Origin: Candidatus Hadarchaeota archaeon
GTDB taxonomy: Archaea; Hadarchaeota; Hadarchaeia; Hadarchaeales; JAGGTB01
Length of the DNA stretch: 64,000 nucleotides
Direction: 5' to 3'
NCBI GenBank assembly: GCA_964554215.1
Contig: CAZKND010000001.1
Span: 9,158 to 73,157 of the forward strand
Shown: positions 31,319 through 63,014 of the stretch, one piece after another
Layout of the letters: each line of letters starts with the position of its first letter
How positions within the stretch are numbered: position 1 is the stretch's first letter
The notes under the pieces: model-generated
The model's input: only the letters and a program-made list of their open reading frames with translations
Database searches by the model: none
Told to the model about the DNA's origin: nothing
Position numbers and translations under genes: made by a program

Positions 31319-31714
31319 TCAGGACTTTACTTTGGTTACTGAAATAGAATCTCTTTCCGCGACCTCTCGAAAGCTGTCAACACCGTCCTCTATCTTAGCG
31401 AAAGTGCTAACAGGGCTAACCGGCTGAGAATCTCCATAGAATACACAAAAAGCAGGGCCCTTGGGCCAATACGAAACGTCGCCTTTCTCTGTATTAGCAC
31501 TTCCTTCCTCCGGCTCAATATTCACAGGGATTGTGAAGTAGACCTCTTCCTTGAAGACAGAAGCTTTTCCTTCAAAGGGTAAAGACTCCCAAACGGCTTT
31601 GCAAGTCTCAGGCCTCTCGTCTTCGAGGAGTTTAGCTGTCGCTTCGAAATCGTCACCTGATATCTTAATTCTCTTAGTCATATTATCCTCAGTTAGTCTT
31701 GATTGATTTGCCAA
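31319..31714 (-). CDS. cyclophilin-like superfamily protein (DUF369/PF04126-like)
   Basis: Pattern IKISGDDFEA.L ... LPFEGKASVFKEEVYF ... GDVSYWPKGPAFCVFYG resembles the TM1367-type cyclophilin-like family. An internal ATG (MTKRIKI) is the probable start. Confidence 0.5.
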   Translation of the reverse strand: MANQSRLTEDNMTKRIKISGDDFEATAKLLEDERPETCKAVWESLPFEGKASVFKEEVYFTIPVNIEPEEGSANTEKGDVSYWPKGPAFCVFYGDSQPVSPVSTFAKIEDGVDSFREVAERDSISVTKVKS

Positions 31715-31782
31715 ATAAAACTGATGGACATGAAAATTTTCTCTTTAAAAAACACCGGCACAAAACCCCTAACAGGATTAGA

Positions 31783-32562
31783 ATGCCAATACAAGATTTC
31801 GGCGCGGTATGCGACATAAGTACGCTGACAGATAAGAACTCATTAGAAAAAGCACATCGTTACTTCAAAAACTCCGGTCTATACCTCCCTTCCCCCACAT
31901 ATTCCTGGCTTTCCAGATCTAAGCTTATAGAAGTCCGAAACCAACCAGTGAAATACAGCCTAATCCGAAAAGAAGTACAGAAAAGGAAAATATACCCTAT
32001 CCACTTCCCGGAGATATATGACGAACTCAGCAGACAAATCCTATTTGACACAGATCATAATATTCCCCTAACCGACATAAGAAGTCTATTACTGAGCACT
32101 CATCTTCAAATTCCCACTCTCACATTTGACCCGGAAATGTTGGAACGCATTTCAAAAGAAATAGGGATGATAACAATGAAAGAGATTAAAGTGAACTCTC
32201 ACTGGAAAAAACTCAAAGAGATACTCAGACTATACAGAGAAATGCTCTTCAAAGCAGGAGCAGAATTTCACAAAAATATTGAAAAAAATCAAACTTTTCC
32301 TCAAATAACTCAAGAAATTGAAGAATCACAAAAAGAAGAGATTAAGAGAACGTTAAACGCAATAAATGGAATTCAGGAAAATCAAAAAGCTGGTAAAAAA
32401 ATAAAGTTTCACTTTCTGACCTGGGATATATTACCCAGTCTCAGAGAATACCATGCTCAAAAAATACTACCATCTCAGATGATAGAAAGAATATGTGAAA
32501 GAACAACTCTTCTTATAGCTACCCCTGAAAATTTCGAAAAAACGAAAAATATAGGTAAATAG
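31783..32562 (+). CDS. hypothetical protein (259 aa from the ATG at 31783)
   Basis: ORF with no recognisable domain. Lies in a lower-GC block. Confidence 0.4.
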   Translation: MPIQDFGAVCDISTLTDKNSLEKAHRYFKNSGLYLPSPTYSWLSRSKLIEVRNQPVKYSLIRKEVQKRKIYPIHFPEIYDELSRQILFDTDHNIPLTDIRSLLLSTHLQIPTLTFDPEMLERISKEIGMITMKEIKVNSHWKKLKEILRLYREMLFKAGAEFHKNIEKNQTFPQITQEIEESQKEEIKRTLNAINGIQENQKAGKKIKFHFLTWDILPSLREYHAQKILPSQMIERICERTTLLIATPENFEKTKNIGK

Positions 32563-32638
32563 TTCGAATACACGGAGAAAATTAATAAAATAAACGGAAA
32601 AACAAAAACTCTGAAAATGATTAAAACGGCGGATCAAA

Positions 32639-33976
32639 ATGAAAAAGAAGATTACAGCTGTACTTCTAATACTTTCATTCCTAATCCTACTACCTAGTAG
32701 CAATTTTGTAGTACAGAACTACGCCGAAAGAGATTACGTTCAATACAAAACCGAACCAGAAAATTATAATCCTCCAATCATCAAAATGTCGGAAAACTCA
32801 GGTCTATCGACAAAGATATGGTCAGAAAACAAATACACATACGAAGAAGTTGAAAACTTTCAAGATACTAGAAAAGTTGTTGACCATTATGAAGAAAAAC
32901 CAAAGTACGGAGTGTGGTCCGCAGACTCCTATACCTCAAGAATCCAAGTAGAAGCGGATCTTTCCGAAATGGACGAAGACACTCTAAGTTATCTGGAATC
33001 TACAAAAGACGAGGATTGGTGGTTAAACTATTTTGAATCAGTTTCTTACGGTAGACCTCGAAATTTTAGTTTAGAACCTAATGAAAAGCAAAAATTCGAA
33101 TATGGATTCCAAAATTTTCAAGGATTCATAAATTGGAGAGATTTTAGAATCAGAGGAAGGTTCGGAACCTACTATCATATCCCCATTCCTAGAACTTATA
33201 GATACTTAAAAGAGGAAGGAAAATACCAAGTTCCAATTTATAAAGATGAAAAATACACCCGTTGGCGTACTAAAACTTTCGAAAACATAGAATACGAAGC
33301 AGAAGGATGGAAAAAAGCGGAAATAGAAGTGGAACTTTCAGAATATACCCCTCCCAGCTATATCGAAGACAATATTTATTTGAAATCTAAAGTCAAGCCT
33401 AACGGACTAAACGTAAAACTAGATAATAATATCTTAGACTCAAAATCTTCTGTAATACACCTTAGTATTCAACCTACAAATAAAATGAAAAAAGGGAAGT
33501 ATCCCATCTTTTTAGAAGCATACACCTCTGAAAATGAGAAAATTGACACATCAAAATACAAATTAAACCTCAAAAAAGGAAGTGTCCCTGAAAACAAACA
33601 TAGAAAAATAAACGAAGAAGTATCCGATAAAAAACCGGATGAGAAAGGAGATTCTAAGGAGGGTGAACAAAAAGAATGGGTTGGAGTAGGAGGAACAGTT
33701 TACTCCAGTAAAACAGGTGACAAACTAATAGAATACTCAGATGGAGTAAAAGTCCACATCGAAAGAGATGGTTTTTCCGGAACAGCCTCATGGACCACAT
33801 CAACACAATATATTCACAAAAATCACACATATCAAGACAAAACCTGGGAAATGAAACTAAGAGCTACCGCAGATGGTTACTATAGAGAAACTGCTCAAGT
33901 AACGGATTCTACCGATGACCATGGATGGGCTAACCAGGACTTCGAATTAAAACCCAATTCTAATTTTATAAACTAA
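32639..33976 (+). CDS. hypothetical secreted protein (445 aa), rich in Tyr/Trp/Lys/Glu
   Basis: N-terminal signal peptide MKKKITAVLLILSFLILLPSS. No known domain. Lower GC by eye. Confidence 0.5.
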   Translation: MKKKITAVLLILSFLILLPSSNFVVQNYAERDYVQYKTEPENYNPPIIKMSENSGLSTKIWSENKYTYEEVENFQDTRKVVDHYEEKPKYGVWSADSYTSRIQVEADLSEMDEDTLSYLESTKDEDWWLNYFESVSYGRPRNFSLEPNEKQKFEYGFQNFQGFINWRDFRIRGRFGTYYHIPIPRTYRYLKEEGKYQVPIYKDEKYTRWRTKTFENIEYEAEGWKKAEIEVELSEYTPPSYIEDNIYLKSKVKPNGLNVKLDNNILDSKSSVIHLSIQPTNKMKKGKYPIFLEAYTSENEKIDTSKYKLNLKKGSVPENKHRKINEEVSDKKPDEKGDSKEGEQKEWVGVGGTVYSSKTGDKLIEYSDGVKVHIERDGFSGTASWTTSTQYIHKNHTYQDKTWEMKLRATADGYYRETAQVTDSTDDHGWANQDFELKPNSNFIN

Positions 33977-34005
33977 ATCTAGAAAAAGGAAAGGAATGTG
34001 AAACC

Positions 34006-34884
34006 ATGGGAGAAAACAAAAAAGGTACTAATCAGGATAATAGTTCCGCTTTCACCTACCTAATAGCTTTACTCGTAGTAATATTCATAATCGGAACTTC
34101 TTTAGCAATAACGCCTTTAGGAGATATACTATCCGAAGAATTAGCTGACAGTAAATTTGTCGAAAGTTATGATAACAAAAACTTGAGCAAAAAAGACAAC
34201 TCAAACATACAAGACGAGAACAAAAAAGTGACCTTCACGTATACTGCAAAATACAATCACCTTGGAACAGAAAACGATATATTATTAGACGGTACTGTTT
34301 TCTTCTCCTTTCCAACACCAATGATAGAGAATAATCCTGCAGTGAACCTAGGTCCATATAATCACAAAATTGAAAATAGTACCGTTCAGCTCTTGGCCAA
34401 TTATAAAGAAAACGATGAGAATATAACACAAGTTCAAATAGAAAATGGAAATTATGGAAAATTAATTGACCCACGACAAGACGCAATATTCTCCAAAAAA
34501 CCCTTCCTCTCTAATCCGGAAAATCATGGTAAAAAAATTACAGTTCAATCATCGGGGGGTGGTTTCACTGAAGCTTTTAGAAAAAAAGGACCTGGAGGAG
34601 CAATTTATGAACACGAAAGTATACTAATTGAAGTAAAATTTTCAGTTCAAAAAGAAAAAACAGACGAGGTAACCCTTGAGGATCAAAAAGGCAATATTTC
34701 ATCAAAAATTATTGGAACTACCGATGGACCCAATACAAATCATACTGTTATCCCAATCCAATACTCTGTCTCAGTAACACTTTCTCGAGAAATCGAAAAC
34801 AAACAAAAAGTCGATAAATTTAGATTCAAGGCAGAAAAACCCATACCCAAAGATAAATCTGTTGAACTGAAAAAGATTGCTTAA
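34006..34884 (+). CDS. hypothetical membrane-anchored extracellular protein (292 aa), Asn/Lys-rich
   Basis: Single N-terminal TM helix (FTYLIALLVVIFIIGTSLAI). No known domain. Immediately downstream of the secreted ORF. Confidence 0.45.
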   Translation: MGENKKGTNQDNSSAFTYLIALLVVIFIIGTSLAITPLGDILSEELADSKFVESYDNKNLSKKDNSNIQDENKKVTFTYTAKYNHLGTENDILLDGTVFFSFPTPMIENNPAVNLGPYNHKIENSTVQLLANYKENDENITQVQIENGNYGKLIDPRQDAIFSKKPFLSNPENHGKKITVQSSGGGFTEAFRKKGPGGAIYEHESILIEVKFSVQKEKTDEVTLEDQKGNISSKIIGTTDGPNTNHTVIPIQYSVSVTLSREIENKQKVDKFRFKAEKPIPKDKSVELKKIA

Positions 34885-37719: not shown

Positions 37720-38253
37720 GTGAACAAAATGTTTAGAGCATATAGATGTGAAATTTGTGGAGAAACCTATCTAGGTAAAGGAAAACCTGAAAACTGTCCA
37801 TATTGCGGAGCACAAGAAGAATACCTGAAGAAGATAGAAAATTACGAAAGACTGATGCCGGAAAAAATAACGGAAAAATCTCGAGAAAACATCAAAGAGG
37901 CAATAAAGCTCGAAATAGACAACGCTAAATTCTACAATTGCGCCTACGAAAAAACGGAGAACGAGGATGACGCTGCAATATTCAAAAGGTTGAGAAAGAT
38001 AGAAGCAGAACACGCAGAACTTTTAGCAGAGATAATAGACGTTCCAGAAAAAGAAATACCTGACTACGAAGAATGTTCAGAAGATGCAGAAGAAAACTAC
38101 AAGGATGCTCACGATAGAGAAGACCGAGCGATAAAGTCCTATTCGAAATTCGCCAAAGAAGCAGAAAATCCAAAGGTCAAAGAAGTATTCGAAGCTATTG
38201 TCGAAATAGAATCAGACCATCTGGATCTTTCAGAAGAAAAAATCTCGGATTGA
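37720..38253 (+). CDS. reverse rubrerythrin-like protein (N-terminal rubredoxin-type zinc ribbon plus ferritin-like diiron domain)
   Basis: CEICG ... CPYCG zinc ribbon at the N-terminus. Two E..H pairs (IEAEHAEL; EIESDHLD) and further glutamates in a four-helix-bundle-like C-terminal part. Confidence 0.6.
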   Translation: MNKMFRAYRCEICGETYLGKGKPENCPYCGAQEEYLKKIENYERLMPEKITEKSRENIKEAIKLEIDNAKFYNCAYEKTENEDDAAIFKRLRKIEAEHAELLAEIIDVPEKEIPDYEECSEDAEENYKDAHDREDRAIKSYSKFAKEAENPKVKEVFEAIVEIESDHLDLSEEKISD

Positions 38254-38338: not shown

Positions 38339-38752
38339 TTGGATATGGAATATGAAGGAATAGGAATTAGAGCTCTATCTATAATCTTGGATTCCATAAT
38401 TCTATCAATATTCTTCTTTCCATTAGGATACACCCACACCGGGTACTTCCCATATGAAGTGTATGGAAGAGGCGCATTTCTAATATTCAATAGTACTGCT
38501 ATAATCTCTCTAGCTTACTTCATCATCCTAGAAGGTTTAATGGGTCAAACAATAGGTAAACTCATAACCGGAATAAAAGTAGTGAAAACAAACGGTGACC
38601 CTTGCGATTTCGAAGCATCCTTCGTCAGGAATATACTTAGGATTGTAGATATAATCTTTGCCTACATAGTTGGCGCAGTATTAATAGCTCGTTCTGACAA
38701 AAATCAGAGATTCGGAGATAGAGTAGCGGATACAGTGGTGATAAACGCTTAA
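38339..38752 (+). CDS. RDD family membrane protein
   Basis: GIRALSIILDSII ... GQTIGKLITGIKVV ... RFGDRVADTVV with three TM segments. Confidence 0.75.
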   Translation: MDMEYEGIGIRALSIILDSIILSIFFFPLGYTHTGYFPYEVYGRGAFLIFNSTAIISLAYFIILEGLMGQTIGKLITGIKVVKTNGDPCDFEASFVRNILRIVDIIFAYIVGAVLIARSDKNQRFGDRVADTVVINA

Positions 38753-38818
38753 ATTTACTCATTCCATTTATAAAAAAATATAAAAGCGTCTGTTAGTAAA
38801 ATAAAGTGGACGAATTCT

Positions 38819-39577
38819 ATGTTTGATGACGATAAATTCAGAAATCTGAGAATATTTAATCTTTCGATGGGATTTTTCCATCTGATTCAGTCCATGTTAA
38901 TGATATTTCTTAGCACAGACTTCGCGATATCAGTGACGAGTACCTACATGCAGGGACCACCAGGTACTGTAGAAGTAGCAAGAGAGGTTCTATTCGATAT
39001 AAAATTAGGACCTGCAATCGCATTGTTCCTATTGCTCTCAGCGGTGGCCCATTTCTATCTCTCATCTGTAGGTTTTGATTGGTACAAAGAAAATCTAAAA
39101 AATCATATAAATAAGGCTCGATGGATAGAGTATTTCTTCAGCAGTTCTCTCATGATCGTTATCATAGCTATGCTGGTTGGAATCACCGATTTAGCAGCTT
39201 TGGTAGCCTTGTTTGTTGTAAACGGATCCATGATCTTGTTCGGTTGGCTAATGGAATCATATAATCAAAACACTGAAGATGTTGCTTGGTCACCTTTCGT
39301 ATTCGGATGCATCGCCGGGATTGCTCCCTGGATTGCAATAGCCATCCGGCTAGCAACAGCTTTCTCCTTCACTTCCGTTCCTATTCCAAGTTTCGTTATC
39401 TGGATATTTGTATCGATAGCTATCTTTTTCAATATCTTTGCAGTTAACCAAGCCTTACAATACAAAGAAGTAGGGCCGTGGGAGAACTATCTTTTCGGAG
39501 AAAAGGTCTACATAGCCCTCAGCCTCATCGCGAAATCATTGCTAGCTTGGCAGGTCTTTGCAGGCACACTGGTCTAA
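38819..39577 (+). CDS. heliorhodopsin (7-TM retinal protein, inverted topology)
   Basis: FNLSMGFFHLIQ ... TYMQGPPGT ... WIEYFFSSS ... NGSMILFGWLMESYNQ ... FGCIAGIAPWIAIAI ... QALQYKEVGPWENYLFGEKVYIALSLIAKSLLAWQVFAGTL align block-for-block with heliorhodopsin 48C12 as I recall it. The Schiff-base lysine is in SLIAKS (codon 39533-39535) and the counterion Glu is in WIEYF. Confidence 0.85.
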   Translation: MFDDDKFRNLRIFNLSMGFFHLIQSMLMIFLSTDFAISVTSTYMQGPPGTVEVAREVLFDIKLGPAIALFLLLSAVAHFYLSSVGFDWYKENLKNHINKARWIEYFFSSSLMIVIIAMLVGITDLAALVALFVVNGSMILFGWLMESYNQNTEDVAWSPFVFGCIAGIAPWIAIAIRLATAFSFTSVPIPSFVIWIFVSIAIFFNIFAVNQALQYKEVGPWENYLFGEKVYIALSLIAKSLLAWQVFAGTLV

Positions 39578-39608
39578 ATCATATCTGAAAACGGACGCCG
39601 ATCAAATC

Positions 39609-40331
39609 TTAACTTTCATCTTTTCTAACTTCATCTTTGCAGTCTTCATCATCTAAAAACTCGTCTACTTCAAACTCTACGTCTTCCTTTTCCCTTATTT
39701 TGCCTTTAGCCTCTCTTTCAGGGGCCTTTGCAAAGAAGTATATAGTGGAACCGAGAATCAATCCCATTACAAAAGTGAATACCCCTACACCACCCCATAC
39801 TCCCAAACTGCCTCCTACATTGCTAAAGAATTCAGTTACAGTAGTAGCTCTACTAGGATGGATAAGTATTTTCCCTATCCATGCTAGCGTGAAAATGAAG
39901 ATTATCCATATATACATCCTCTTCAGTCTTCTCTTTACTGCTTCTGGCCAAGTTACTTTAAACTCTGGTTCTCGAAAGTCTCGTGAAATTAAATCTTGCC
40001 ATCCCTCATCCACCTCTACATTCGAATCAAAAAATCTTGACAGGAACATTTCCTCTAAGGCTCTAACTCTTCCTCGCCAAGCATCGTAATATCTATATCT
40101 TCTAGCCTCAGCGAAAAGTAGAACATATGTCAAAAACAAACCTGGTAACATCGTCCAATGCGGAGCGGTCTTGGTACCAAGAGCAAAGGTCAAAACACCT
40201 ACTGTCATGACGATAGCCCAATTCGTAGTCCTATCCATACGGGTTCTCCAAGTATTAATACGTTGAAGCTCTCCACGGTAAACGTGCATAATGACGTTCG
40301 TGTCTCCACGACTTATCTCATCCCAATCCAT
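39609..40331 (-). CDS. conserved membrane protein (possibly DUF2270-like)
   Basis: Four predicted TM helices, a YRGELQRINTWRTRMDRTTNW N-terminal motif and an acidic C-terminal tail. The family assignment is tentative. Confidence 0.45.
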   Translation of the reverse strand: MDWDEISRGDTNVIMHVYRGELQRINTWRTRMDRTTNWAIVMTVGVLTFALGTKTAPHWTMLPGLFLTYVLLFAEARRYRYYDAWRGRVRALEEMFLSRFFDSNVEVDEGWQDLISRDFREPEFKVTWPEAVKRRLKRMYIWIIFIFTLAWIGKILIHPSRATTVTEFFSNVGGSLGVWGGVGVFTFVMGLILGSTIYFFAKAPEREAKGKIREKEDVEFEVDEFLDDEDCKDEVRKDES

Positions 40332-40455: not shown

Positions 40456-40863
40456 CTAATAAGTGGTATACTCTTCTTTGATTTCTCTTCTTTCAATCGA
40501 CTTATTCTCTTTTTTTAGTTTCTTTATAACTTCTTCAGGGTGCTCCATTCCAATTTCCGCTAGAATCTTCTTCAACTCACTAATCTTAATATTTTCCAGT
40601 TCAGGGTGGTTCTCGGAGATTCCTACAATTTCGTTGAAGAAATCCTTAGCTTCAGCTTCCATCTCTTTCGAAGAGACCTCAGAAGTATCCAACGGTTCCT
40701 CCGACGTATCCTCTTCCCTCTTCAAAAACCTCTCTCCAAGTCTACTCACATCCTCCCCCTCTTCTTTCTTCTTTTCAAAACGCTCGCCTAACCTTTGGGC
40801 AAGTACTTCGGACTCCTCACTCTCACTTTTCTCATTTTCTTCACTCATCATTATCCCCCTCAC
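40456..40863 (-). CDS. acidic coiled-coil protein encoded directly downstream of parA (candidate ParA partner/adaptor)
   Basis: 135 aa. Overlaps the parA 3' end by 23 nt on the same strand. Duplicated RLGERF motif and no obvious HTH. Confidence 0.4.
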   Translation of the reverse strand: MRGIMMSEENEKSESEESEVLAQRLGERFEKKKEEGEDVSRLGERFLKREEDTSEEPLDTSEVSSKEMEAEAKDFFNEIVGISENHPELENIKISELKKILAEIGMEHPEEVIKKLKKENKSIERREIKEEYTTY

Positions 40864-41635
40864 ATTTTGATATAACTAAATCAGCAAGGCTCATGAAATT
40901 TTCCACCTGATCACAAGAAGGATCATGATTATAAAGAGTAGTCCTCTTCTTCATAGCTCTCCTAATCGCAACCCTTTGACGAAGCTCGAAAGGCGTCAAA
41001 TATTCTTTCAAACCATCCATCTCTCGCAACTTATCCAGCGTAGAGGAAGCCACATTGTCCGGCCTCACCAGATTAGGTACGATTGCAAGTATCTCCACAT
41101 TTATCCCAAAAGCGTTCTCTATCTCCTCAATCTCATCGAGAGCTCTGTGAACGGACACAACACTCATGTCTTCATCTTTTATCGGAACAACCACTCTCCC
41201 CGCAGCAAGTATGGCATTATCGTAAAGTATACCTACGGTCGGAGGCGAGTCTACCACTACATAATCGTAAGGGTCTTCAACCTCTTCCAAAAACATTTTT
41301 AATCTCATTTCTCGATTCCTCTCAGAACTTAGCCTCTCCTCCACCCCTCTCATATCATAATTAGAAGGAACCAAATCAACTCCTTCCTCTGTAGTAATGA
41401 TTGTATCTTCTGGATCGCCTTTAGTTCCTTTAATCAAGTGATATGCTAAACTGTCCTTATTTTCATCATAATACTCCCGATCAAAACCTAAATGGGCCGA
41501 AAGGTAAGCGGAAGGATCAAGATCCACTATCAATACGTCCTTGTCTTTCTTAGCCAAAGCCACTGCAAGATGCAGCGCTATAGTGGTCTTTCCAACACCA
41601 CCCTTCTGATTTGAAACGGTTACACGATAAGTCAT
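40841..41635 (-). CDS. ParA/MinD/Soj-family P-loop ATPase
   Basis: Deviant Walker A KGGVGKTT. 264 aa. Confidence 0.85.
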   Translation of the reverse strand: MTYRVTVSNQKGGVGKTTIALHLAVALAKKDKDVLIVDLDPSAYLSAHLGFDREYYDENKDSLAYHLIKGTKGDPEDTIITTEEGVDLVPSNYDMRGVEERLSSERNREMRLKMFLEEVEDPYDYVVVDSPPTVGILYDNAILAAGRVVVPIKDEDMSVVSVHRALDEIEEIENAFGINVEILAIVPNLVRPDNVASSTLDKLREMDGLKEYLTPFELRQRVAIRRAMKKRTTLYNHDPSCDQVENFMSLADLVISKCEGDNDE

Positions 41636-44936: not shown

Positions 44937-45098
44937 ATGAAATGTTGGATATGTCGAGAAGAGAAGGAAGACCTTAAGGAGATAGAAGCCATGGGGTCGG
45001 AGCATCACGTGTGTTCTGACTGCCTCTGGAGGGTATTAGACGAGCACGGTAAGCCAAAGTACGAGACAAAGCCTAAGTGGGAGAATATCTATGAGTAA
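44937..45098 (+). CDS. small zinc-ribbon protein (53 aa; CWIC ... CSDC); not in the supplied ORF track
   Basis: My own translation: MKCWICREEKEDLKEIEAMGSEHHVCSDCLWRVLDEHGKPKYETKPKWENIYE. Overlaps the start of the downstream epimerase gene by 8 nt. Confidence 0.35.
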   Translation: MKCWICREEKEDLKEIEAMGSEHHVCSDCLWRVLDEHGKPKYETKPKWENIYE

Positions 45099-46284
45099 TT
45101 CTGATAAAGTCCTAGTCATGGGAGCGTGTGGTAACGTCGGCTCGAAGTTAGTGAGGATTCTGCTGGATAACGGATACGATGTAAGGGCTAGCGACCTGGA
45201 GGATGCGAGTAAGGAGCTTTTAGGGGACCTTGATGTGGAGTTCGTTCCCGGGGACATCACGAAACCAGAAACTTTACAAGACGTTGTCGAGGACGTGGAC
45301 GCGGTTTTTAACACGGTATCATTCCTGGCCTACTCGAACCTTATCTCTTACGACCAGATGTACAAGGTCAATGTAGAGGGGGAAAGGAACTTACTTGAGG
45401 CCACCATGGAAAACAATGACGATCTTAAGGCCTTCATACACTGGGCTTCGGGAGAAACTTACGGTCTGGGCGGTTTGTTTGAAGAGCGGTTCCTCCATGA
45501 AAATGGAGAAAGTAGAGAGGATCATCCTCAAACTGCATCTGATGCTCCCTATCCGAAGACGAAATTGCTAGGTGAGCGAGAGTGTTGGCAGTACTACGAG
45601 GAGGAGGATTTACCATTGATAGTAATGCGACCATCCATGATTTATGGACCGGAGCCATCATTCGAGGACAGAAGGTGGCTCAGATACTCCAAGTATTTCA
45701 TGGTAATGCGGGATTTAGTAGAGATGATGGGAGGATGGCCAGGGCTTCTGAACTTTAAAAACCCGCTTGTCCACGCGGAGGATTCAGCCAGAGCGGCAGC
45801 ATTCCTTTACGAGAACAAAGAGGATGCCATAGGTGAGGCATTCAATATCGTGGACGACCAAAATTACACCATGGAAGACATCGTTCGTTTCATGTTTGAC
45901 TATTTCGGCTGGGATATTCAAGAAAATCCTTCTGCACATCTCAAGCCCCTGTTGAAGGGACTTCCACTGCCAAAACCCACCATCAGGGTGTTCAAGAAGG
46001 CGTACAGGGCCTGGATGGACGAAGTAAGGGAACAGGGACCAATCTGGTGGGACTCGAACTACCAGGATCACTATCTTGAAGAGATGCTGAGCATGGAGAA
46101 TTACTGTGAGGACTTCAAATATTCCAACAGAAAGATAAAGGATCTCGGCTTTGAATTCAAGTATCCGGACGTGAGGGACGCCTTACCAGACATATTCGAG
46201 AACTGGAAGGAAAAAGACCTGGTGCCAGAGAGCTCCGGATTCAAGCACTTCTTTCTCAAGGCATTCCTGCTGGATGAACGCTAA
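45091..46284 (+). CDS. NAD-dependent epimerase/dehydratase (extended SDR) family protein, divergent homolog of 53902-55089
   Basis: Rossmann motif VMGACGNVGSKL and catalytic YxxxK (APYPKTK). Noticeably higher GC than its surroundings. Roughly 35-40% identity to the other copy by eye. Confidence 0.8.
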   Translation: MSNSDKVLVMGACGNVGSKLVRILLDNGYDVRASDLEDASKELLGDLDVEFVPGDITKPETLQDVVEDVDAVFNTVSFLAYSNLISYDQMYKVNVEGERNLLEATMENNDDLKAFIHWASGETYGLGGLFEERFLHENGESREDHPQTASDAPYPKTKLLGERECWQYYEEEDLPLIVMRPSMIYGPEPSFEDRRWLRYSKYFMVMRDLVEMMGGWPGLLNFKNPLVHAEDSARAAAFLYENKEDAIGEAFNIVDDQNYTMEDIVRFMFDYFGWDIQENPSAHLKPLLKGLPLPKPTIRVFKKAYRAWMDEVREQGPIWWDSNYQDHYLEEMLSMENYCEDFKYSNRKIKDLGFEFKYPDVRDALPDIFENWKEKDLVPESSGFKHFFLKAFLLDER

Positions 46285-49155: not shown

Positions 49156-49539
49156 TCACTCCAATCTTATTTCTTTAGAAGATTCCCAAACGCCGTGCAG
49201 ATTGCATTTGGCCTTAGCTCTCAAAGGATGGGAATGGTCCAATTTAACCGTAGTCTTCATAACATAGTCACTCTTCTCAGGAGTTAGAGATAGTCGTGCC
49301 AAAAAAGTATCACCAGAATAAAGTTCCATCCATTCAATGAAATGCCCGGGTTCATTAGGATGCTCTTTATACTCCCCGACTCTAACCTCTACTTCAAAAG
49401 GCTCATTTTCCTCTACTGAATCCGGAGCATCTATAATTACTGTATGCTTCTTCTCTAAAGCATTCATATCTTCAGGGTCGTCAGTAGAAGGTTTGTTCAC
49501 CCCACAAAACAAGTCATCTTCACAAGATTCTTCAGACAT
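49156..49539 (-). CDS. sor: superoxide reductase (neelaredoxin/desulfoferrodoxin-type)
   Basis: Iron ligands in EKKHTV ... EHPNEPGHFIEWMEL ... CNLHGVW, in the order typical of SOR. 127 aa. Confidence 0.7.
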   Translation of the reverse strand: MSEESCEDDLFCGVNKPSTDDPEDMNALEKKHTVIIDAPDSVEENEPFEVEVRVGEYKEHPNEPGHFIEWMELYSGDTFLARLSLTPEKSDYVMKTTVKLDHSHPLRAKAKCNLHGVWESSKEIRLE

Positions 49540-53901: not shown

Positions 53902-55089
53902 ATGTCAGGAAAAAAGAAAGCTCTGGTCACAGGTGCGTGTGGCTTCGTAGGCTCGCATATTATTGACCTTTTAGTAGAGGACGATGACTACGAAGATGTG
54001 ATTGCAACAGATCTCGAGTCAGCTGATACTAGTCATCTGGAAGACAAAGACGTAGACTTCAGACCGGCTGACTTTACAAAACCGGAGACCATCGATGAGA
54101 TACTGGATGAAGACATAGACGTTATTTTCAACCCAGCTGCGGCATTTAATTACGAGATGCCCATGCAGGTGATGAAGAAAATAAACGTTGAAGGAGGACG
54201 AAACTTTGCAGAAGCTGTGGTTGAAAACGTCGAGGACCTAGATATATTCGTCCATGTTAGCACCGGAGAAATCTATGGATACAACATGTTTGGAAAGAGC
54301 GAAGAACTAGATGAAGACGGTCATTTCAAGGAAGTAGAATCTAAAACACCTGGTGAAGCTCCCTATGCAAAAACCAAAAAACTACAAGAAGAAGAGATTT
54401 GGGAACTACACGAGGAAGAAGATCTACCAGTTGTAGACATGAGACTTGGAACTGTTTATGGACCAGGATTGTTCTTTGCAAGACTGGTGAATCTTTTCAT
54501 TGACCTTGCGTCTCTCGGAAGATTCCCAGACAATATCAACTTTAGATGGCCGCTGGTCCATGTCGAAGATGTAGCTTCAGCAGCTAAATTCCTCGCAGAA
54601 AAAGGAGACGAAGTTATAGGCGAGGCCTATAATATAGTGGACGAACAGGAATACATCCTATCGGACATGGTTTACAAAGTAGCTGACTACATGGACATGG
54701 AAGTAGAGAACCTACCTAATATTCCTTCTATGGGTGAACTTTGGAAATTAATTCCAAAGGGAGAACTGGTAGAAGATATTCTAGACGAAGCTTACCCAGA
54801 ATACCAAAACCAAGTGGAAGACCGATATGACGATGATGTCTGGATGAAATACAACCATGCAGGACCATACGCAAAACTCTTGCTAAATAACATGCCTGAA
54901 TGGGACGATGATTTCACATATTCCAACAAAAGTTTGAAAGAAATTGGTTGGGAACCGAAGTACGAAAGTTTCCTCGATGCTATTCCAGAGATTATAGAAT
55001 GGAGTAAAGAAAACGGTTATCTCGTAGAGAATCCAGGTCTAAAGCATCTAGTAACAAAGGCTCTAATCTCCGACCCTTCAGAAGCCTAA
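53902..55089 (+). CDS. NAD-dependent epimerase/dehydratase (extended SDR) family protein, intact copy
   Basis: LVTGACGFVGSHI Rossmann motif and catalytic APYAKTK. 395 aa with a C-terminal extension. Confidence 0.8.
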   Translation: MSGKKKALVTGACGFVGSHIIDLLVEDDDYEDVIATDLESADTSHLEDKDVDFRPADFTKPETIDEILDEDIDVIFNPAAAFNYEMPMQVMKKINVEGGRNFAEAVVENVEDLDIFVHVSTGEIYGYNMFGKSEELDEDGHFKEVESKTPGEAPYAKTKKLQEEEIWELHEEEDLPVVDMRLGTVYGPGLFFARLVNLFIDLASLGRFPDNINFRWPLVHVEDVASAAKFLAEKGDEVIGEAYNIVDEQEYILSDMVYKVADYMDMEVENLPNIPSMGELWKLIPKGELVEDILDEAYPEYQNQVEDRYDDDVWMKYNHAGPYAKLLLNNMPEWDDDFTYSNKSLKEIGWEPKYESFLDAIPEIIEWSKENGYLVENPGLKHLVTKALISDPSEA

Positions 55090-55148: not shown

Positions 55149-56087
55149 TTACGAAATTTTCATCTTTTCTTTTTTGAAATAAGGTTCCCTTCTGCTTATA
55201 GCCTCTTTGTAAGCCTTCCGAACTTTTTCATGATCCTTTTCTCTTACTGGAGTGAGAGCATCCACAAGATTATCATTTCTCATCAAACAAGGCTTCAAAA
55301 ACCCTCCAGATGTCATCCTTAACCTAGTACAATATTCGCAAAATTCAGAGTTATGCATCGGATTTACGACCTCTACTTCCCCTCCATCAATTTTATACTT
55401 TCGTCTAGCTTGCATCATCCATCGTGTGTCGACATCTTCCGCTCTCTCTCTGATTCTCTCTTCTATAGTATCTAAATCCTTATGATACTCTTGATAAGAT
55501 TGTTTGTTTTCTGGCAAGACTTCTTCAAACTCTATCAATTGCAGGATAGCTTCCGTGTCAACGGAGTAATCTATTAAACTTTCGATGTTTTCCCCATCGT
55601 TAACCCCATCTAAAACTATCGTATTCAGCTTCACAGGATAGAGATTCGACTCTACTGAGGCCTCAATACCAGCAAGGACATCATCCAGAACGTCCTTGCC
55701 TGTTATCTCCTCATAGATAGAATGATCGAGGGTATCCAAACTAATATTGACCCTATCCAAACCTGCATCCACCAATTCATCCACCTTTTCATCTAAAAGT
55801 ACTCCATTTGTAGTCAAAGAAACATCTTTAATTTTAGGATTGGAAACGGCTTTTATTATCTCAACTATGTCATCTCTTACTAGCGGTTCTCCTCCTGTAA
55901 TCTTTATCTTTTCTATACCGAACTCCGTGCCAATATCCACTAATTTTTCTATTTCTGAAGGGGTCATCTTTCTTTCAGGAATCTCGCAACCTTCTTTGTG
56001 ACAGTAAAAGCAATCAAGATTACAATCTTGAGTTACGGAAATCCTTAAACTTGTCAACGGCCTACCATAATCATCCTTCATCCTCAT
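55149..56087 (-). CDS. moaA: GTP 3',8-cyclase MoaA (radical SAM)
   Basis: CNLDCFYC radical-SAM motif and C-terminal cysteine cluster. 312 aa. Confidence 0.85.
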   Translation of the reverse strand: MRMKDDYGRPLTSLRISVTQDCNLDCFYCHKEGCEIPERKMTPSEIEKLVDIGTEFGIEKIKITGGEPLVRDDIVEIIKAVSNPKIKDVSLTTNGVLLDEKVDELVDAGLDRVNISLDTLDHSIYEEITGKDVLDDVLAGIEASVESNLYPVKLNTIVLDGVNDGENIESLIDYSVDTEAILQLIEFEEVLPENKQSYQEYHKDLDTIEERIRERAEDVDTRWMMQARRKYKIDGGEVEVVNPMHNSEFCEYCTRLRMTSGGFLKPCLMRNDNLVDALTPVREKDHEKVRKAYKEAISRREPYFKKEKMKIS

Positions 56088-56838
56088 TCAACTCCAGCAC
56101 AATTCTATCACCGTCCCCCTCTTTCAGAGACGAAACCATTCCAGAAACGGTGTTTTTGATCAAGTCCTTAACGAAAGGTTTGAGAGGTATCTCCCTACCA
56201 TCGACTTTCAGAGTAACTTGACCTTCAAAAGCCACACACTCGTCTTGAGAGACATTCTCTTCAGAGACAGCTTGAACAAATTCTCCACAAGTGTCAAAGC
56301 CACATTGTCCACAATCCAAATTCCCAACCGGTTGCATCGCTTTATCCTCTACTAATTCAACTATTGAATCCATATCATCGCAATCTAATACGGGCTTATC
56401 TCTAATTCCGTTTTTCAAAAATGCAACAGTAAACATATCATCTAACCTCTCCACCTCATCGTCATTATCCGCAATAGCCACTTTAGGAATAATTTCAGAA
56501 TCTCGAAAACCTTCTACTATAACGTAATCCAAACCCTCCATATTCCCAAGAAAGTTTTCTAAACTAAATCCCCCTTTTTTCATGGTAACCGTTTCATCAG
56601 GACTCAGCAAACAAACCTCTTCCGCACCCGCTTCAGCATGCCTCCAAGTATCCGTACCCTCTCGATCAATCGTAAAACCTTCCTGAGAAACATGTTTCAC
56701 TGTACCAACACTAAACCCTCTCTTTTTCAATCTTTCAACAACTCCTTCGACAACCTTCGTCTTCCCGCTTTCCTTAAAGCCTGTTATTGCTATGAACTTA
56801 ACCAAAACTTCCACCTCCAAACAAGTTAACTTCAACAA
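56071..56838 (-). CDS. mobB: MobB-like P-loop protein with a Cys-rich C-terminal extension
   Basis: AITGFKESGKTKVVEGVVERLKKRGFSVGTVKH matches the MobB N-terminus. The C-terminal part carries CGQCGFDTC plus further Cys residues. Confidence 0.7.
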   Translation of the reverse strand: MLKLTCLEVEVLVKFIAITGFKESGKTKVVEGVVERLKKRGFSVGTVKHVSQEGFTIDREGTDTWRHAEAGAEEVCLLSPDETVTMKKGGFSLENFLGNMEGLDYVIVEGFRDSEIIPKVAIADNDDEVERLDDMFTVAFLKNGIRDKPVLDCDDMDSIVELVEDKAMQPVGNLDCGQCGFDTCGEFVQAVSEENVSQDECVAFEGQVTLKVDGREIPLKPFVKDLIKNTVSGMVSSLKEGDGDRIVLELNEDEG

Positions 56839-58042
56839 TTTCTCCTTTTTCTAAAATTTCCGTCGCTACTGGAACCTCTGCATAACCATCCGATTTCACC
56901 AAAGCAGTAATAGCTCCGGAGCCTTTCTTCAAAGGCTCGGCCAAAAACTTATTCTCCAATTCATTGACCTCTACTGGAGCCAATTGTCTCCGACCTTTTG
57001 AAGATAAAATCTTCCTAGAGAGTTCTGCTTCCAAACTTTTCCTTTCAGGTTTGCTAAATCCCGCTAATTCCCGAATGTAGGGAGATACTAACTGATCGAA
57101 AACCATGAGCGCGGAAACGGGATATCCTGGAAGACCAAAGATAGATTTTCCCTTAACCATGGCCATGAGAGTCGGCTTCCCCGGTTTTTGAGCAAGTCCA
57201 TGAATTATTACTCCCGGGTCTCCTAGTTCATCAATCGCCTTTGGAATCAAATCCTTTGATCCGGCTGAAGAGCCTCCGGAGGTGATAACTATATCATTTT
57301 GAGAGAGGGCATCTCTAATATTACTCTTTACATCTGGGATGTTATCTCCCACAATTCCACAATAATTACTCCTTCCACCTGCTGATTCAACCGCATCGCA
57401 AACTGCAGGGCCATTTATGTCGTAAAGCTCTCCTCTTTCCAGATCTTTCTCTGGCTTCACAACTTCTTCCCCTGTGGATAGAACTGCAACTTTCGGTTTC
57501 CTAATCACTTGAACTTCTTTCACACCTGCTCCATAGAGGGCTCCTCTAACCTGTGGTGCGATTTTTTGGCCTTTCTCAGCTATTTTTTCTCCTTTTTTTA
57601 TCTCCGAACCTTTTTGAGATATATTCTCTTCGGGGGATACGGACCTCCGGATCTCAACTGTTTGGCCTTTCTCATCAGTGTCTTCGACCATTACTACGGC
57701 GTCTGCGCCTTCGGGTATTACAGCTCCGGTAGCTATTTCCACACAGCTTCCTTCGGACACTTTTATTTCGGGATTTTCACCTGCATGGACTTCACCTTTC
57801 CTCGTTAATTTTACGGGGTCGTTTTCTTCTGCGCCAAACGTGTCCTCTGCGCGGACTGCAAATCCATCGTATACCGCTCTATCAAAAGGAGGTAAATCTA
57901 TTTTTGATTGAACATTTTCGGCAAGTATCTGACCTTTTACATCCTCTAAACTTTTTCCTTCGGTCTGAATCTTCGAATCCCAATTTTTATCTATCTCTTC
58001 CCGAGCTTCTTCTAAGGTCCTAACTGAAAGAGGTTCATGCAT
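56798..58042 (-). CDS. moeA: molybdopterin molybdotransferase MoeA (paralog 2)
   Basis: [13 protein letters not shown] ... GGSSAGSKD motifs. 414 aa. Confidence 0.85.
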
Positions 58043-58110
58043 GAAATCGAGTTATATATAATGAATATTAGTTAAAAAAGATGACATTGTTAATCGTTTT
58101 CAGTTAACAA

Positions 58111-59364
58111 CTACAGGTCAATAAGCTGAACATCGACATGCTCTCCTCGAGAATAACCCTCCTGATTCTCCGGAACCATAACAACGCCATCAGCTTCCGA
58201 AATAGACCTCAAAACACTCGAACCAGTAACCCTCAGAGGTTTAACAACATAGCCATCCTCCCGTTCTTCCAACTCAACTCTGACCACATCGACCCTACCC
58301 AAAGAAGAACTGATCTTCCTATCCAGAACCCCCTCCACATTCCAACCAAAGTCCAGAGGTTTCAATCCTAACATTTTTCTCAAAACGGGTTTTAACAGGG
58401 TTTCAAAAGCAACTAGCGCAGCCGCTGGGAATCCGGGAAGTGAAAATACTAAAGTCCCATCTACAACACCAAAAGCACATGGACTACCAGGGCGTATACC
58501 CACTCCATGGAAAAATAATTCTCCAACTTCGTCAATAGCAAGAGGAACTAAATCCTTCTCCCCGACCGAAGACCCACCTGTGAGAACCATCAAATCAAAA
58601 CCAGACGTGTTCTCTAAAACCTTTTTAATCTCATCTAGATCATCGGAAAATATACCCAATCTCTCAAAATCCCCACCTACTTTCTCAACTGAATGACCCA
58701 AAGTATACCCATTTACCTCCGTGATTTCCCCAGGGCTCAAAGAGCTGTCCACTTCCTTGAGCTCATCTCCTGTCATGACAATGGCAACTTTAGGTTTTTT
58801 TCTGACGCTGATTTTCAGATTTTTAGTGGAAGCTAAAATGCCTATATCGGAAGGTTTAATTTCCCTGCCTTCCTCCAATACCTTCTGGCCTTCTCTAAAA
58901 TCTTCCCCCTTAGGAGAAACATTCTCACCAGGAGACACAGGGGACAAAATATCTACTTTCGAACCCTCTCTGACCGTTTCCTCAAACTTCACCGTAGCAT
59001 CCGCTCCTTCAGGCATAGGAGCTCCAGTAGCAATTTCTGCAGTTTTTCCACTCTCTATATTTTTTTCCGGACTGGAACCAATTTTTACAGATTCCACGAT
59101 CTCCAACTCTTTAGGATCGTTCTCGTCTGCACCGAACGTATCTTCAGCCTTTACTGCAAATCCATCCATCGCAGATCGGTCAAAAGGAGGTACATTTACA
59201 TTTGAAACTACTTCTTCTGCCGTTATCCTTCCTAGAGAATCATCAAAACGAACAATTTCTTCATCCAAAACATGCGTTTTTGAAAGAGCTATCTGCTGTG
59301 CCTTCTCCAAAGCAGTATACTCGGAAAAACCTTTCTTTCTAACATCCATCTTATTCACGCGCAT
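58111..59364 (-). CDS. moeA: molybdopterin molybdotransferase MoeA (paralog 1)
   Basis: PPFDRSAMDGFAV ... GGSSVGEKD motifs. 417 aa. Confidence 0.85.
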   Translation of the reverse strand: MRVNKMDVRKKGFSEYTALEKAQQIALSKTHVLDEEIVRFDDSLGRITAEEVVSNVNVPPFDRSAMDGFAVKAEDTFGADENDPKELEIVESVKIGSSPEKNIESGKTAEIATGAPMPEGADATVKFEETVREGSKVDILSPVSPGENVSPKGEDFREGQKVLEEGREIKPSDIGILASTKNLKISVRKKPKVAIVMTGDELKEVDSSLSPGEITEVNGYTLGHSVEKVGGDFERLGIFSDDLDEIKKVLENTSGFDLMVLTGGSSVGEKDLVPLAIDEVGELFFHGVGIRPGSPCAFGVVDGTLVFSLPGFPAAALVAFETLLKPVLRKMLGLKPLDFGWNVEGVLDRKISSSLGRVDVVRVELEEREDGYVVKPLRVTGSSVLRSISEADGVVMVPENQEGYSRGEHVDVQLIDL

Positions 59365-59866
59365 GCTTTACGATATGACCCAAATCAGTTGAAATCAAAT
59401 TCATTCCTTCCTCAACAGAGTTGGGGGCTCCCGGCAAGCAAAAAACAGGTTTATCATCCGCAATACCTAATGTTGCCCTAGTTATTATCGCAGGGAAACC
59501 AACTGATTCAAAGCCTTTTCTTCTCAATGTTTCACCGAACCCAGGAAGTTCTTTATCAAAATATTCTCTAACGACCTCAATGGTTATGTCCCTTTCAGCA
59601 ATCCCAGTTCCCCCAGTAGTGATTATAGCATCAACCTCAGAATCCTCTAACCAATCTTCCAACAATTTGCTCAATTTTTTCTCATCGTCAGGAATTATCA
59701 CGCGATCAGAAGAATGGCCTGAATCATTTAATCTTTTTTCAATTAACTGTCCCGATTCATCTTTATCTTCACCGTTCTCCATAGCAGCTGATCTAGAATC
59801 ACTGACAGTGATAACGCCTACATGTAAAGTATCTGGAGCTTCTTTTCTGTGTTCTTCGGAGGTCAT
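59351..59866 (-). CDS. moaB: molybdopterin adenylyltransferase MoaB/MogA family
   Basis: ITTGGTGIAERD and LPGAP motifs. 171 aa. Confidence 0.8.
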   Translation of the reverse strand: MTSEEHRKEAPDTLHVGVITVSDSRSAAMENGEDKDESGQLIEKRLNDSGHSSDRVIIPDDEKKLSKLLEDWLEDSEVDAIITTGGTGIAERDITIEVVREYFDKELPGFGETLRRKGFESVGFPAIITRATLGIADDKPVFCLPGAPNSVEEGMNLISTDLGHIVKHARE

Positions 59867-60297
59867 TTTTTCACCTTTTCATCAACCGAAACATCCCTTA
59901 TTTTTGTATCCGGATATTGCCCTTCTTCATCTTTCTCGAAACCCTTAGTCATATCCCAAATTGTAAGGAGAGAAGCGTTAACTCCTGATAGCGCTTCCAT
60001 CTCTACACCAGTCTGACCTCTGCTCTTTACTTCAACCTCAACTCTTACCCCATCTTCTTGAAGATTGATATCAACATTTGCCCCTGTTATCGGAATTGGA
60101 TGTGTTAATGGAACTATCTGAGTTGTATTTTTTATAGCCATCACTCCCGCAGTTTTCGAAACAGATATTACATCGCCTTTAGGAACCTCATCATTTTCAA
60201 TTTTTTCTACCGTATCAGAATCTAGTTCTATAAATCCAGACGCTTTAGCCACCCTCTTCACGTGGTCCTTTCCTCCAATATCAACCATCTTGGTCAA
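59863..60297 (-). CDS. moaC: cyclic pyranopterin monophosphate synthase MoaC
   Basis: VDIGGKDHVKRVAKASG ... TGVEMEALSGVNASLLTIWDM conserved MoaC blocks. 144 aa. Confidence 0.85.
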   Translation of the reverse strand: MTKMVDIGGKDHVKRVAKASGFIELDSDTVEKIENDEVPKGDVISVSKTAGVMAIKNTTQIVPLTHPIPITGANVDINLQEDGVRVEVEVKSRGQTGVEMEALSGVNASLLTIWDMTKGFEKDEEGQYPDTKIRDVSVDEKVKK

Positions 60298-63013: not shown

Positions 63014-63014
63014 C

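Follow-up and report, generated by a model that had tools for sequence, protein, structure and literature searches.

An intact heliorhodopsin gene of TaHeR/48C12 type in the genome of an MSBL1-like, apparently salt-adapted anaerobic archaeon

We analyzed a 64-kb stretch of DNA (64,000 nucleotides; hereafter the window) from contig CAZKND010000001.1 of a Candidatus Hadarchaeota archaeon, focusing on an open reading frame (ORF) of 252 codons that an initial annotation, made from the sequence, had named as a heliorhodopsin (HeR) gene. The translated ORF matched the Pfam family Heliorhodopsin (PF18761) with an E-value of 8.6e-100 (333.5 bits, where the gathering score is 26.7), and its residues 10-251 covered the model in full, from position 1 to position 242 of 242. 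This was the sole Pfam match of the protein, as no other family, including that of the type-1 rhodopsins (Bac_rhodopsin, PF01036), was found at E ≤ 0.01. The score against the NCBIfam equivalog NF038020, "heliorhodopsin HeR", was 338.3 bits versus a cutoff of 100, so that automatic annotation would assign that name to the ORF. The best sequence matches among solved structures were the heliorhodopsins TaHeR (PDB 6IS6, E 3.8e-74) and 48C12 (6SU3, E 2.5e-71). These matches are far above chance and, in agreement with the initial annotation, identify the ORF at the sequence level as an intact heliorhodopsin gene. The locations of this gene and of the other features discussed are listed in Table 1.

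Table 1. Positions of the features discussed. Coordinates refer to the window unless another locus or residue numbering is indicated.
Feature	Position	Strand	Details
Heliorhodopsin gene	38819..39577	+	ATG start, 252 aa plus stop codon; Pfam, NCBIfam and PDB matches
AT-rich TATA-box-like element, TTTATAAAAAAATATAAAAG	38767..38786	+	33-52 nt 5' of the heliorhodopsin ATG; sequence inspection
E104, predicted single Schiff-base counterion (= E107 of 48C12, E108 of TaHeR)	codon GAG 39128..39130	+	alignment
K239, predicted retinal Schiff-base lysine (= K241 of 48C12)	codon AAA 39533..39535	+	HMMER alignment
Predicted transmembrane helices	residues A 4-31, B 63-82, C 99-119, D 125-150, E 158-184, F 191-216, G 224-251		AlphaFold2 model
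Reverse rubrerythrin	37720..38253	+	Pfam RUBY_RBDX residues 8-35, Rubrerythrin residues 56-169
RDD-family small membrane protein	38339..38752	+	Pfam PF06271, E 1.3e-19; immediately upstream of the heliorhodopsin gene, same strand
DUF2270 (PF10028) membrane protein	39609..40331	-	Pfam E 1.1e-54; convergent with the heliorhodopsin gene
Superoxide reductase, desulfoferrodoxin-type	49156-49539		
Two CdhD-family subunits of carbon monoxide dehydrogenase/acetyl-CoA synthase (CODH/ACS)	61613-63974		one with N-terminal Fe-S domain
Heliorhodopsin genes of dark-brine MSBL1 single-cell genomes	L091-L093 636-1397; L094 3606-4373		intact

Residue numbers were compared with those of 48C12 by transferring an HMMER alignment onto the published numbering, and the offset is validated by the mapping reproducing the published 48C12 identities. 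Over 245 aligned residues the two proteins are 51% identical, which bears out the alignment with 48C12 described in the initial annotation. The four motifs quoted there are all found in the translation, WIEYFFSSS at residues 102-110, FGCIAGIAPW at 162-171, SLIAKS at 235-240, and AWQVFAGTL at 243-251. The second of these had been assigned to transmembrane helix 6 (TM6), a placement that does not stand, as the motif falls in helix E (TM5) of our model. Both of the functional residues that had been named are present and align with their 48C12 counterparts (Table 1), and K239 is invariant across 29 aligned homologues. S235 occupies the position of S237 of 48C12, the serine that replaces the second aspartate of type-1 rhodopsins.

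Kovalev et al. (2020; PMC7049168) listed 17 polar or charged residues conserved across heliorhodopsins (in 48C12 numbering, S237, E107, S111, S76, H23, H80, N101, Y108, N16, E230, R104, Y92, E149, Q216, Y226, W105, and Q213), and all 17 are identical in the window protein. The polar cavity on the cytoplasmic side, near the Schiff base, has the same residues as in 48C12 (H21, H78, N14, N98, Y89, Y105, R101, E228, E146, Q214, Y224, W102, and Q211), and position 200, in the hydrophobic extracellular half, is an isoleucine. Two polar surface clusters are also kept, Q24/S240/W244 (Q26/S242/W246 of 48C12) and Q245/S199 (Q247/S201), as are P170 (P172) and the retinal-pocket residues M138, I139, N135, F204, and Q211 (the 48C12 pocket includes M141, I142, N138, and F206). 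Changes from 48C12 were peripheral: P40 to S38, R91 to W88, Y179 to R177, L202 to I200, K222 to P220, and R231 to K229.

An AlphaFold2 model built from the 29-sequence alignment had seven helices, a mean predicted local distance difference test (pLDDT) score of 88.3, and a predicted template modeling (pTM) score of 0.85. The predicted structure has a long AB beta-hairpin at residues 36-62 (strands 36-44 and 53-62) and a short BC helix at 86-94, both of which have been described as typical of heliorhodopsins. When the model was compared with the PDB using Foldseek, all heliorhodopsin entries, including 7U55, 6IS6, and 6SU3, were matched with E-values of ~1e-21 to 1e-17 and template modeling (TM) scores of 0.88-0.91. 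The best type-1 rhodopsin reached only E 5e-4, with a TM-score of ~0.6 and 11-16% identity, and a type-1 microbial rhodopsin is ruled out by this score together with the absent PF01036 match. The N-terminus together with the BC, DE, and FG loops contains seven lysine and arginine residues, whereas the AB, CD, and EF loops together with the C-terminus contain two. By the positive-inside rule this count fits an inverted topology with a cytoplasmic N-terminus, in computational agreement with the orientation that had been put forward.

The gene is also maintained under strong purifying selection, based on a dN/dS of 0.049 in comparison with the heliorhodopsin gene of a relative whose protein is 88% identical; synonymous sites were saturated in every deeper comparison. 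The family membership, residue conservation, predicted fold, and purifying selection of the window heliorhodopsin are established in this analysis. Upstream of its start codon is an AT-rich element resembling a TATA box, whose core, AAA(A/C)AAT(A/T)TAAA, is kept 5' of the heliorhodopsin gene both in the 88% relative and in an 80% identical relative in which the locus is rearranged. Conservation of the box in all three arrangements suggests that it is likely the promoter of the heliorhodopsin gene itself.

Among characterized heliorhodopsins, TaHeR of the Thermoplasmatales archaeon SG8-52-1 (PDB 6IS6, 7U55, and 7CLJ) is the best match in both sequence (~52% identity) and structure (Foldseek E 2e-21, TM-score 0.88). 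Both proteins are archaeal, from an anoxic-sediment type of organism apparently without retinal synthesis, and they share the counterion glutamate, the Schiff-base lysine, the histidine pair, and the hydrophobic extracellular half, with I199 and F203 of TaHeR corresponding to I200 and F204. They differ at about half of their residues, and the E-F loop of the window protein is five residues longer. Its host is of another, MSBL1-like archaeal lineage and salt-adapted. The similarity to 48C12, from a freshwater actinobacterial fosmid (PDB 6SU3, 6SU4, and 6UH3), extends to the core residues, surface clusters, P170, and retinal pocket described above, with a TM-score of 0.89-0.91. However, 48C12 is bacterial, and several of its cytoplasmic positive and dimer-interface residues are changed in the window protein (R91/W88, K222/P220, Y179/R177, and P40/S38).

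A protein identical to the window heliorhodopsin is already present in NCBI, on an 86 kb contig. The next relatives, at 88% and 80% identity, are metagenomic, and they are followed by a tier at 62-72% labelled as Thermoplasmatota, Candidatus Natronoplasma, MSBL1, and Halanaerobiales. This tier includes heliorhodopsins from MSBL1 single-cell genomes of the Red Sea Discovery Deep and from MAGs of hypersaline Thermoplasmatota, Natronoplasma, and Halanaerobiales; their lengths and key residues are as in the window protein, and the MSBL1 host lineage is the same or a related one. In contrast, the gene neighborhoods of the Thermoplasmatota member at 72% identity, of two MSBL1-like contigs, and of the Red Sea MSBL1 single-cell genomes are wholly unlike that in the window. 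In a rough neighbor-joining tree the window protein, this tier, and the heliorhodopsin of Methanohalarchaeum thermophilum (55% identity) formed one clade, within which the window protein was placed beside the Thermoplasmatota and Natronoplasma sequences, not the Red Sea MSBL1 sequences. The grouping hints at exchange of heliorhodopsin genes among hypersaline anaerobes, although the tree is too crude to settle this. The viral heliorhodopsins found were only 36-41% identical, and carriage of this clade by viruses was rejected on that basis. Several of the contigs that encode heliorhodopsins 63-75% identical to that in the window (loci L101-L111 and L137 of our survey) are named SL_5KL_010_SED or SL_8KL_010_SED. 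These are sediment metagenomes, which we take to be from hypersaline soda lakes.

The initial annotation implied that a heliorhodopsin is out of place in an anaerobe. This is not the case, since heliorhodopsins are known in strict anaerobes and in archaea, and their genes are annotated as a matter of routine in many anaerobes. Our scan of species-level genomes found them in at least nine metagenome-assembled genomes (MAGs) of methanogen lineages (Methanomassiliicoccales and relatives, Methanomethylophilaceae, and Methanohalarchaeum) and also in Theionarchaea, Halanaerobiales, Dehalococcoidia, and a large number of Anaerolineae. Heliorhodopsins of strictly anaerobic Firmicutes were discussed by Bulzu et al. 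(2021; PMC8612252), and others have been published from Thermoplasmatales and sedimentary Thermoprofundales. A literature search returned no paper that names heliorhodopsin together with MSBL1, although UniRef already gives the MSBL1 homologues the name heliorhodopsin.

The order of genes around the heliorhodopsin gene is rubrerythrin(+), RDD(+), HeR(+), DUF2270(-), an acidic 135-aa ORF(-), and ParA(-). Pfam matches substantiated the three neighbors that had been proposed from the sequence, and the stop codons of the convergent heliorhodopsin and DUF2270 genes are separated by 31 nt. The rubrerythrin is of the reverse type, in which an N-terminal rubredoxin-like domain precedes the ferritin-like diiron domain, a peroxide-stress enzyme typical of anaerobes. 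The 135-aa ORF (40456-40863, -) is very acidic, has no Pfam match, and overlaps by 23 nt the end of the gene for a ParA/MinD-type ATPase (40841-41635); as it is kept with the ATPase gene in all relatives, it possibly encodes a partner protein of the ATPase. Upstream, three consecutive ORFs of 287, 445, and 292 aa (31699-34884, +) also had no Pfam match, are 64-74% identical in the relative, and adjoin the HerA/NurA genes.

In the 88% relative, represented by three independent assemblies, the same gene order is found inside 20 kb of complete synteny, and as the whole 20 kb is syntenic, this agreement alone is uninformative. The 80% relative, represented by two independent assemblies (loci L086, 490-2503, and L087, 17-2030), has the order rubrerythrin(+), RDD(+), DUF2270(-), HeR(+), with a gene for carbonic anhydrase inserted downstream of the heliorhodopsin gene. 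Compared with window positions 38339-40331, the HeR and DUF2270 genes have therefore swapped order, with their strands kept, and are still adjacent. A simple inversion would not explain this change. An obligatory RDD-HeR operon was rejected, as in the 80% relative the DUF2270 gene lies on the other strand between the two genes and the TATA-like box is kept immediately 5' of the heliorhodopsin gene.

To survey neighborhoods more widely, 179 fetched heliorhodopsin loci were screened by tblastn with the window neighbors (29.9-50.2 kb) as queries. No homologue of the rubrerythrin, RDD, or DUF2270 genes was found near the heliorhodopsin gene in the ~170 loci outside the window lineage. An association of these three genes with heliorhodopsins in general was thus rejected, as they co-occur only in the window's own lineage.

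Genes for stress responses and DNA repair were observed around several heliorhodopsin loci. In the window, the reverse rubrerythrin gene is two genes upstream, HerA/NurA genes are 1.2 kb upstream, and the superoxide reductase gene is 9.6 kb downstream. Genes resembling superoxide reductase were within 2 kb of the heliorhodopsin gene in two unrelated loci, of Thermoplasmatota and Berkelbacteria. On a 717 kb MSBL1-like contig (L089), the heliorhodopsin gene is directly preceded by a gene for a pyrimidine-dimer DNA glycosylase (Pyr_excise, 9163-9567) and, at a distance of 8 kb, by genes for encapsulated-ferritin-like, ferritin, and 1-Cys peroxiredoxin proteins (510-2115), and it is followed by a NiFe hydrogenase cluster. 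Genes for PolX and an NAD-dependent ligase are near the Red Sea MSBL1 heliorhodopsin gene. Bulzu et al. (PMC8612252) tied heliorhodopsins to oxidative-stress genes "for both aerobes and anaerobes", and hypothesized that they help monoderm cells, aerobic or anaerobic, to answer light-induced oxidative damage. The stress and repair genes seen here are loose thematic echoes that fit this hypothesis.

The DUF2270 family was renamed ThsF in a December 2025 preprint, which described it as the membrane effector of type V Thoeris and predicted it to form a ring-shaped channel gated by 3' cyclic ADP-ribose (3'cADPR). The window protein had a weak, sub-threshold match to the octameric membrane protein family 8xMP. 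No TIR gene was found near the window DUF2270 gene, which would make its product an orphan ThsF-like protein in an archaeon.

Genes of archaeal type are found throughout the window (G+C content 39.8%) and include those for Nop5, fibrillarin, GatD/GatE, a family-B DNA polymerase, RFC subunits, TFX, HerA/NurA, and CDC48. GatE is 66-72% identical to its counterparts in five single-cell genomes of candidate division MSBL1 and ~60% identical to those in two others, compared with ~54-65% for Hadarchaeota, and these identities place the host as an MSBL1-like archaeon. The predicted proteome is acidic, with a median isoelectric point (pI) of 4.79 and 84% of 57 ORFs below pI 5.5. Such a pattern is typical of salt-in halophiles. 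The window also encodes a trehalose synthase (TreT, 7-1683), a phosphorylase-like protein (4880-6124), and a GTP-dependent phosphoenolpyruvate carboxykinase (8427-10376), and compatible solutes may thus be made alongside the salt-in signature. Domain scans located the CODH/ACS subunits, superoxide reductase, and rubrerythrin that the initial annotation had listed (Table 1). On this sequence evidence the host is a salt-adapted, anaerobic, MSBL1-like archaeon related to the Hadarchaeota. Its gene content matches that of MSBL1, for which Mwirichia et al. (2016; PMC4725937) described a probable fermentation of sugars together with rubrerythrin, superoxide reductases, and the Wood-Ljungdahl pathway.

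That the heliorhodopsin gene is native to this genome is indicated by its position within 64 kb of archaeal housekeeping genes and by the 20 kb of synteny in three assemblies of the sister lineage; misbinning or contamination was rejected for the same reasons. Scans of the 64-kb window for tRNAs and Rfam families gave no matches. Elsewhere in the window is a compact molybdenum-cofactor cluster (55149-60297, -) encoding MoaA, MobB with an Fe-S domain, two MoeA proteins, a MoaB/Mog-like protein, and MoaC; it is just upstream of genes for an ArsR/PadR-type regulator and the gamma and delta subunits of CODH/ACS (61613-63974).

Of the 57 main ORFs of the window, 53 were scanned with Pfam, and no Blh, CrtB, CrtI, or CrtY-type domains were found, as the initial annotation had noted for retinal-synthesis genes; the ORFs for isoleucyl-tRNA synthetase and a metallophosphoesterase were identified through the annotation of the relative. 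Missing retinal synthesis is typical of genomes that have a heliorhodopsin as their only rhodopsin, a full pathway having been found in just 1 of 381 of them, and the TaHeR host also lacks it. A lateral fenestration in heliorhodopsins has been proposed as the entry for exogenous retinal. Two extended short-chain dehydrogenase/reductase (SDR) genes (45091-46284 and 53902-55089, both +) were considered as possible retinol dehydrogenases, but this gained no support, as they had only weak, sub-threshold NCBIfam matches of the sugar-epimerase/dehydratase type. They are paralogues of ~396 aa resembling epimerases and 3-beta-hydroxysteroid dehydrogenases, and the first is unusually conserved, sharing 97.7% identity with the orthologous protein of the 88% relative.

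Two of the MSBL1 single-cell genomes in the clade, AAA259I09 and AAA259E17, encode full-length heliorhodopsins, each with 66% identity to that of the window. These cells were sorted from Discovery Deep brine at a depth of 2141 m, at 44.8 °C and 26.2% salt (PMC4725937); the original MSBL1 paper makes no mention of rhodopsins. The AAA259I09 protein was identical in three separate single-cell assemblies. The two heliorhodopsins share 81% identity as proteins and 72% as DNA, and their dN of 0.114 with saturated dS points to purifying selection. All but one of 22 key residues checked were kept in both, the other being Y224, which is a serine in AAA259E17. Heliorhodopsins have been described as occurring mostly in the photic zone, a noted exception being BcHeR, which derives from a digester.

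In our view the product of the window gene is most probably a functional heliorhodopsin, of the same type as TaHeR and 48C12, that serves its MSBL1-like, salt-adapted, anaerobic host as a non-transporting photosensor with scavenged retinal, and we assign this interpretation a probability of roughly 0.6. TaHeR and 48C12 have slow photocycles and transport no ions, and a sensory role is the current view of them. By analogy with these characterized homologues, the window protein would bind retinal, undergo a photocycle, and not move ions across the membrane. It would insert with its N-terminus in the cytoplasm, probably as a dimer, and bind all-trans retinal, probably of environmental origin, by forming a Schiff base with K239, for which E104 would be the sole counterion. 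Green light, expected to be absorbed near 540-555 nm, would isomerize the retinal, and the Schiff-base proton would then pass into the water-filled cytoplasmic cavity (H21, H78, E104, E228, N98, Y105, and S235) and stay within the protein. A long-lived late intermediate would then be the signaling state for one or more partner proteins. The identity of the partner and the physiological output are speculative; in an oxygen-sensitive host the most plausible output may be a metabolic change, or a response to the oxidative or DNA damage that accompanies light.

The initial annotation regarded heliorhodopsins as a light-sensing family of unknown function, which is now partly outdated. AbHeR is reported to be a non-transporting heliorhodopsin that regulates its partner, glutamine synthetase, upon illumination (PMC9529153), and proton transport has been reported for viral heliorhodopsins (PMC9448325). 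The general idea of a non-transporting heliorhodopsin regulating a partner protein under light is what the window protein would have in common with AbHeR. The AbHeR pair and other reported heliorhodopsin-partner pairs differ from the window, where the genes adjoining the heliorhodopsin gene encode neither a glutamine synthetase nor a photolyase, DegV, histidine kinase, or ABC transporter.

Several observations weigh against a photosensor. No gene for a transducer is next to the heliorhodopsin gene either, and HisKA, PAS, and response-regulator domains were absent among the scanned neighbors. Bulzu et al. (PMC8612252) described heliorhodopsins that are fused to other domains or linked to transducers, namely MORN-HeR, Znf-HeR, and histidine-kinase-linked HeR; the Pfam scan of the 252-aa window protein showed no fused signaling domain, and it has no MORN or zinc-ribbon N-terminal extension because the heliorhodopsin model spans residues 10-251. 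As the neighborhood is restricted to one lineage, it gives almost no statistical support to any particular partner. In addition, a solar sensor makes little sense for MSBL1 cells in brine at 2141 m, whose heliorhodopsins are 66% identical to the window protein.

The brine homologues, intact and apparently under purifying selection in a lightless habitat, are a reason to consider a light-independent role, in which the protein would be a retinal- or carotenoid-binding scaffold, an anion or pH sensor acting through the Schiff-base cavity, or a constitutive regulator of a partner enzyme. The cavities of 48C12 and TaHeR do bind acetate or chloride at low pH (PMC7049168, among other sources). However, conservation is strict for the Schiff-base lysine and throughout the retinal pocket, which implies that the chromophore matters and argues against such a role. 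Other members of the clade were recovered in sediment metagenomes and in MAGs of Natronoplasma, Halanaerobiales, and Methanohalarchaeum, presumably shallow-lake organisms with light available. The brine-pool cells, too, may belong to populations that also occur in lit habitats. On balance we regard a light-independent role of the window protein as unlikely. A role independent of sunlight for the hypersaline-anaerobe clade as a whole, e.g., chromophore-dependent regulation or chemosensing, perhaps through the ThsF-like DUF2270 protein in the window lineage, is likewise unlikely and is offered tentatively.

Light might alternatively be harvested with the help of a second, carotenoid chromophore as antenna, using exogenous xanthophylls from neighboring phototrophs or haloarchaea. 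Hypersaline habitats are rich in carotenoids, and archaea are single-membraned. A 2025 preprint (10.1101/2025.11.27.691015) reported that a carotenoid-binding site and the lateral fenestration are conserved among heliorhodopsins, and argued for the recruitment of exogenous xanthophylls in monoderm cells. This support comes from a preprint, however, and energy-converting transport is not expected of a protein with a hydrophobic extracellular half and with I200 and F204 in place of Glu and Trp; we consider an antenna function improbable. The same two residues bear on whether the protein could be a light-gated proton channel or pump like V2HeR3 of a coccolithovirus. Some heliorhodopsins do transport protons, and in V2HeR3 this depends on E191 in TM6 and W195, whereas TaHeR has I199 and F203 (PMC9448325). 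With I200 and F204 at these positions, the window protein resembles the non-transporting, slow-cycling heliorhodopsins. E228 (E215 of V2HeR3) is present, though it is conserved in all heliorhodopsins, and E205 of V2HeR3 is replaced by Q214. As the sequence and the model are also closest to two non-transporters, and viral heliorhodopsins are much more distant, proton transport appears highly improbable. Lastly, the heliorhodopsin could form a module with its membrane neighbors, gating or regulating the ring-forming, ThsF-like DUF2270 protein and/or the RDD protein upon illumination. The three genes are together in all three sampled sub-lineages, including the swapped 80% relative (L086 and L087), the DUF2270 family was recently described as ligand-gated ring-shaped membrane effectors, and the weak 8xMP match fits a ring. 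Adjacency nevertheless carries little weight in a region that is syntenic over 20 kb, and the strand and position of the DUF2270 gene in L086 argue against an obligate operon. None of the ~170 outside loci, among them other MSBL1-like contigs and the 63-75% relatives, has a DUF2270, RDD, or rubrerythrin homologue near its heliorhodopsin gene. We thus consider such a module very unlikely, with the DUF2270 protein a weak candidate for a heliorhodopsin partner.

Compared with these alternatives, a non-transporting photosensor remains our preferred interpretation. The finding adds MSBL1-like archaea as a host lineage to a well-catalogued family and does not open a new mechanism. Intact heliorhodopsins in dark brine are a puzzle that can be tested cheaply and that bears on what heliorhodopsins do. 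The value of the window gene is ecological: an uncultured, strictly anaerobic archaeon with an acetyl-CoA pathway, apparently from hypersaline habitats, has a conserved photoreceptor gene beside its defenses against peroxide and superoxide. This arrangement fits the published idea that heliorhodopsins may warn monoderm cells of light-associated oxidative damage.

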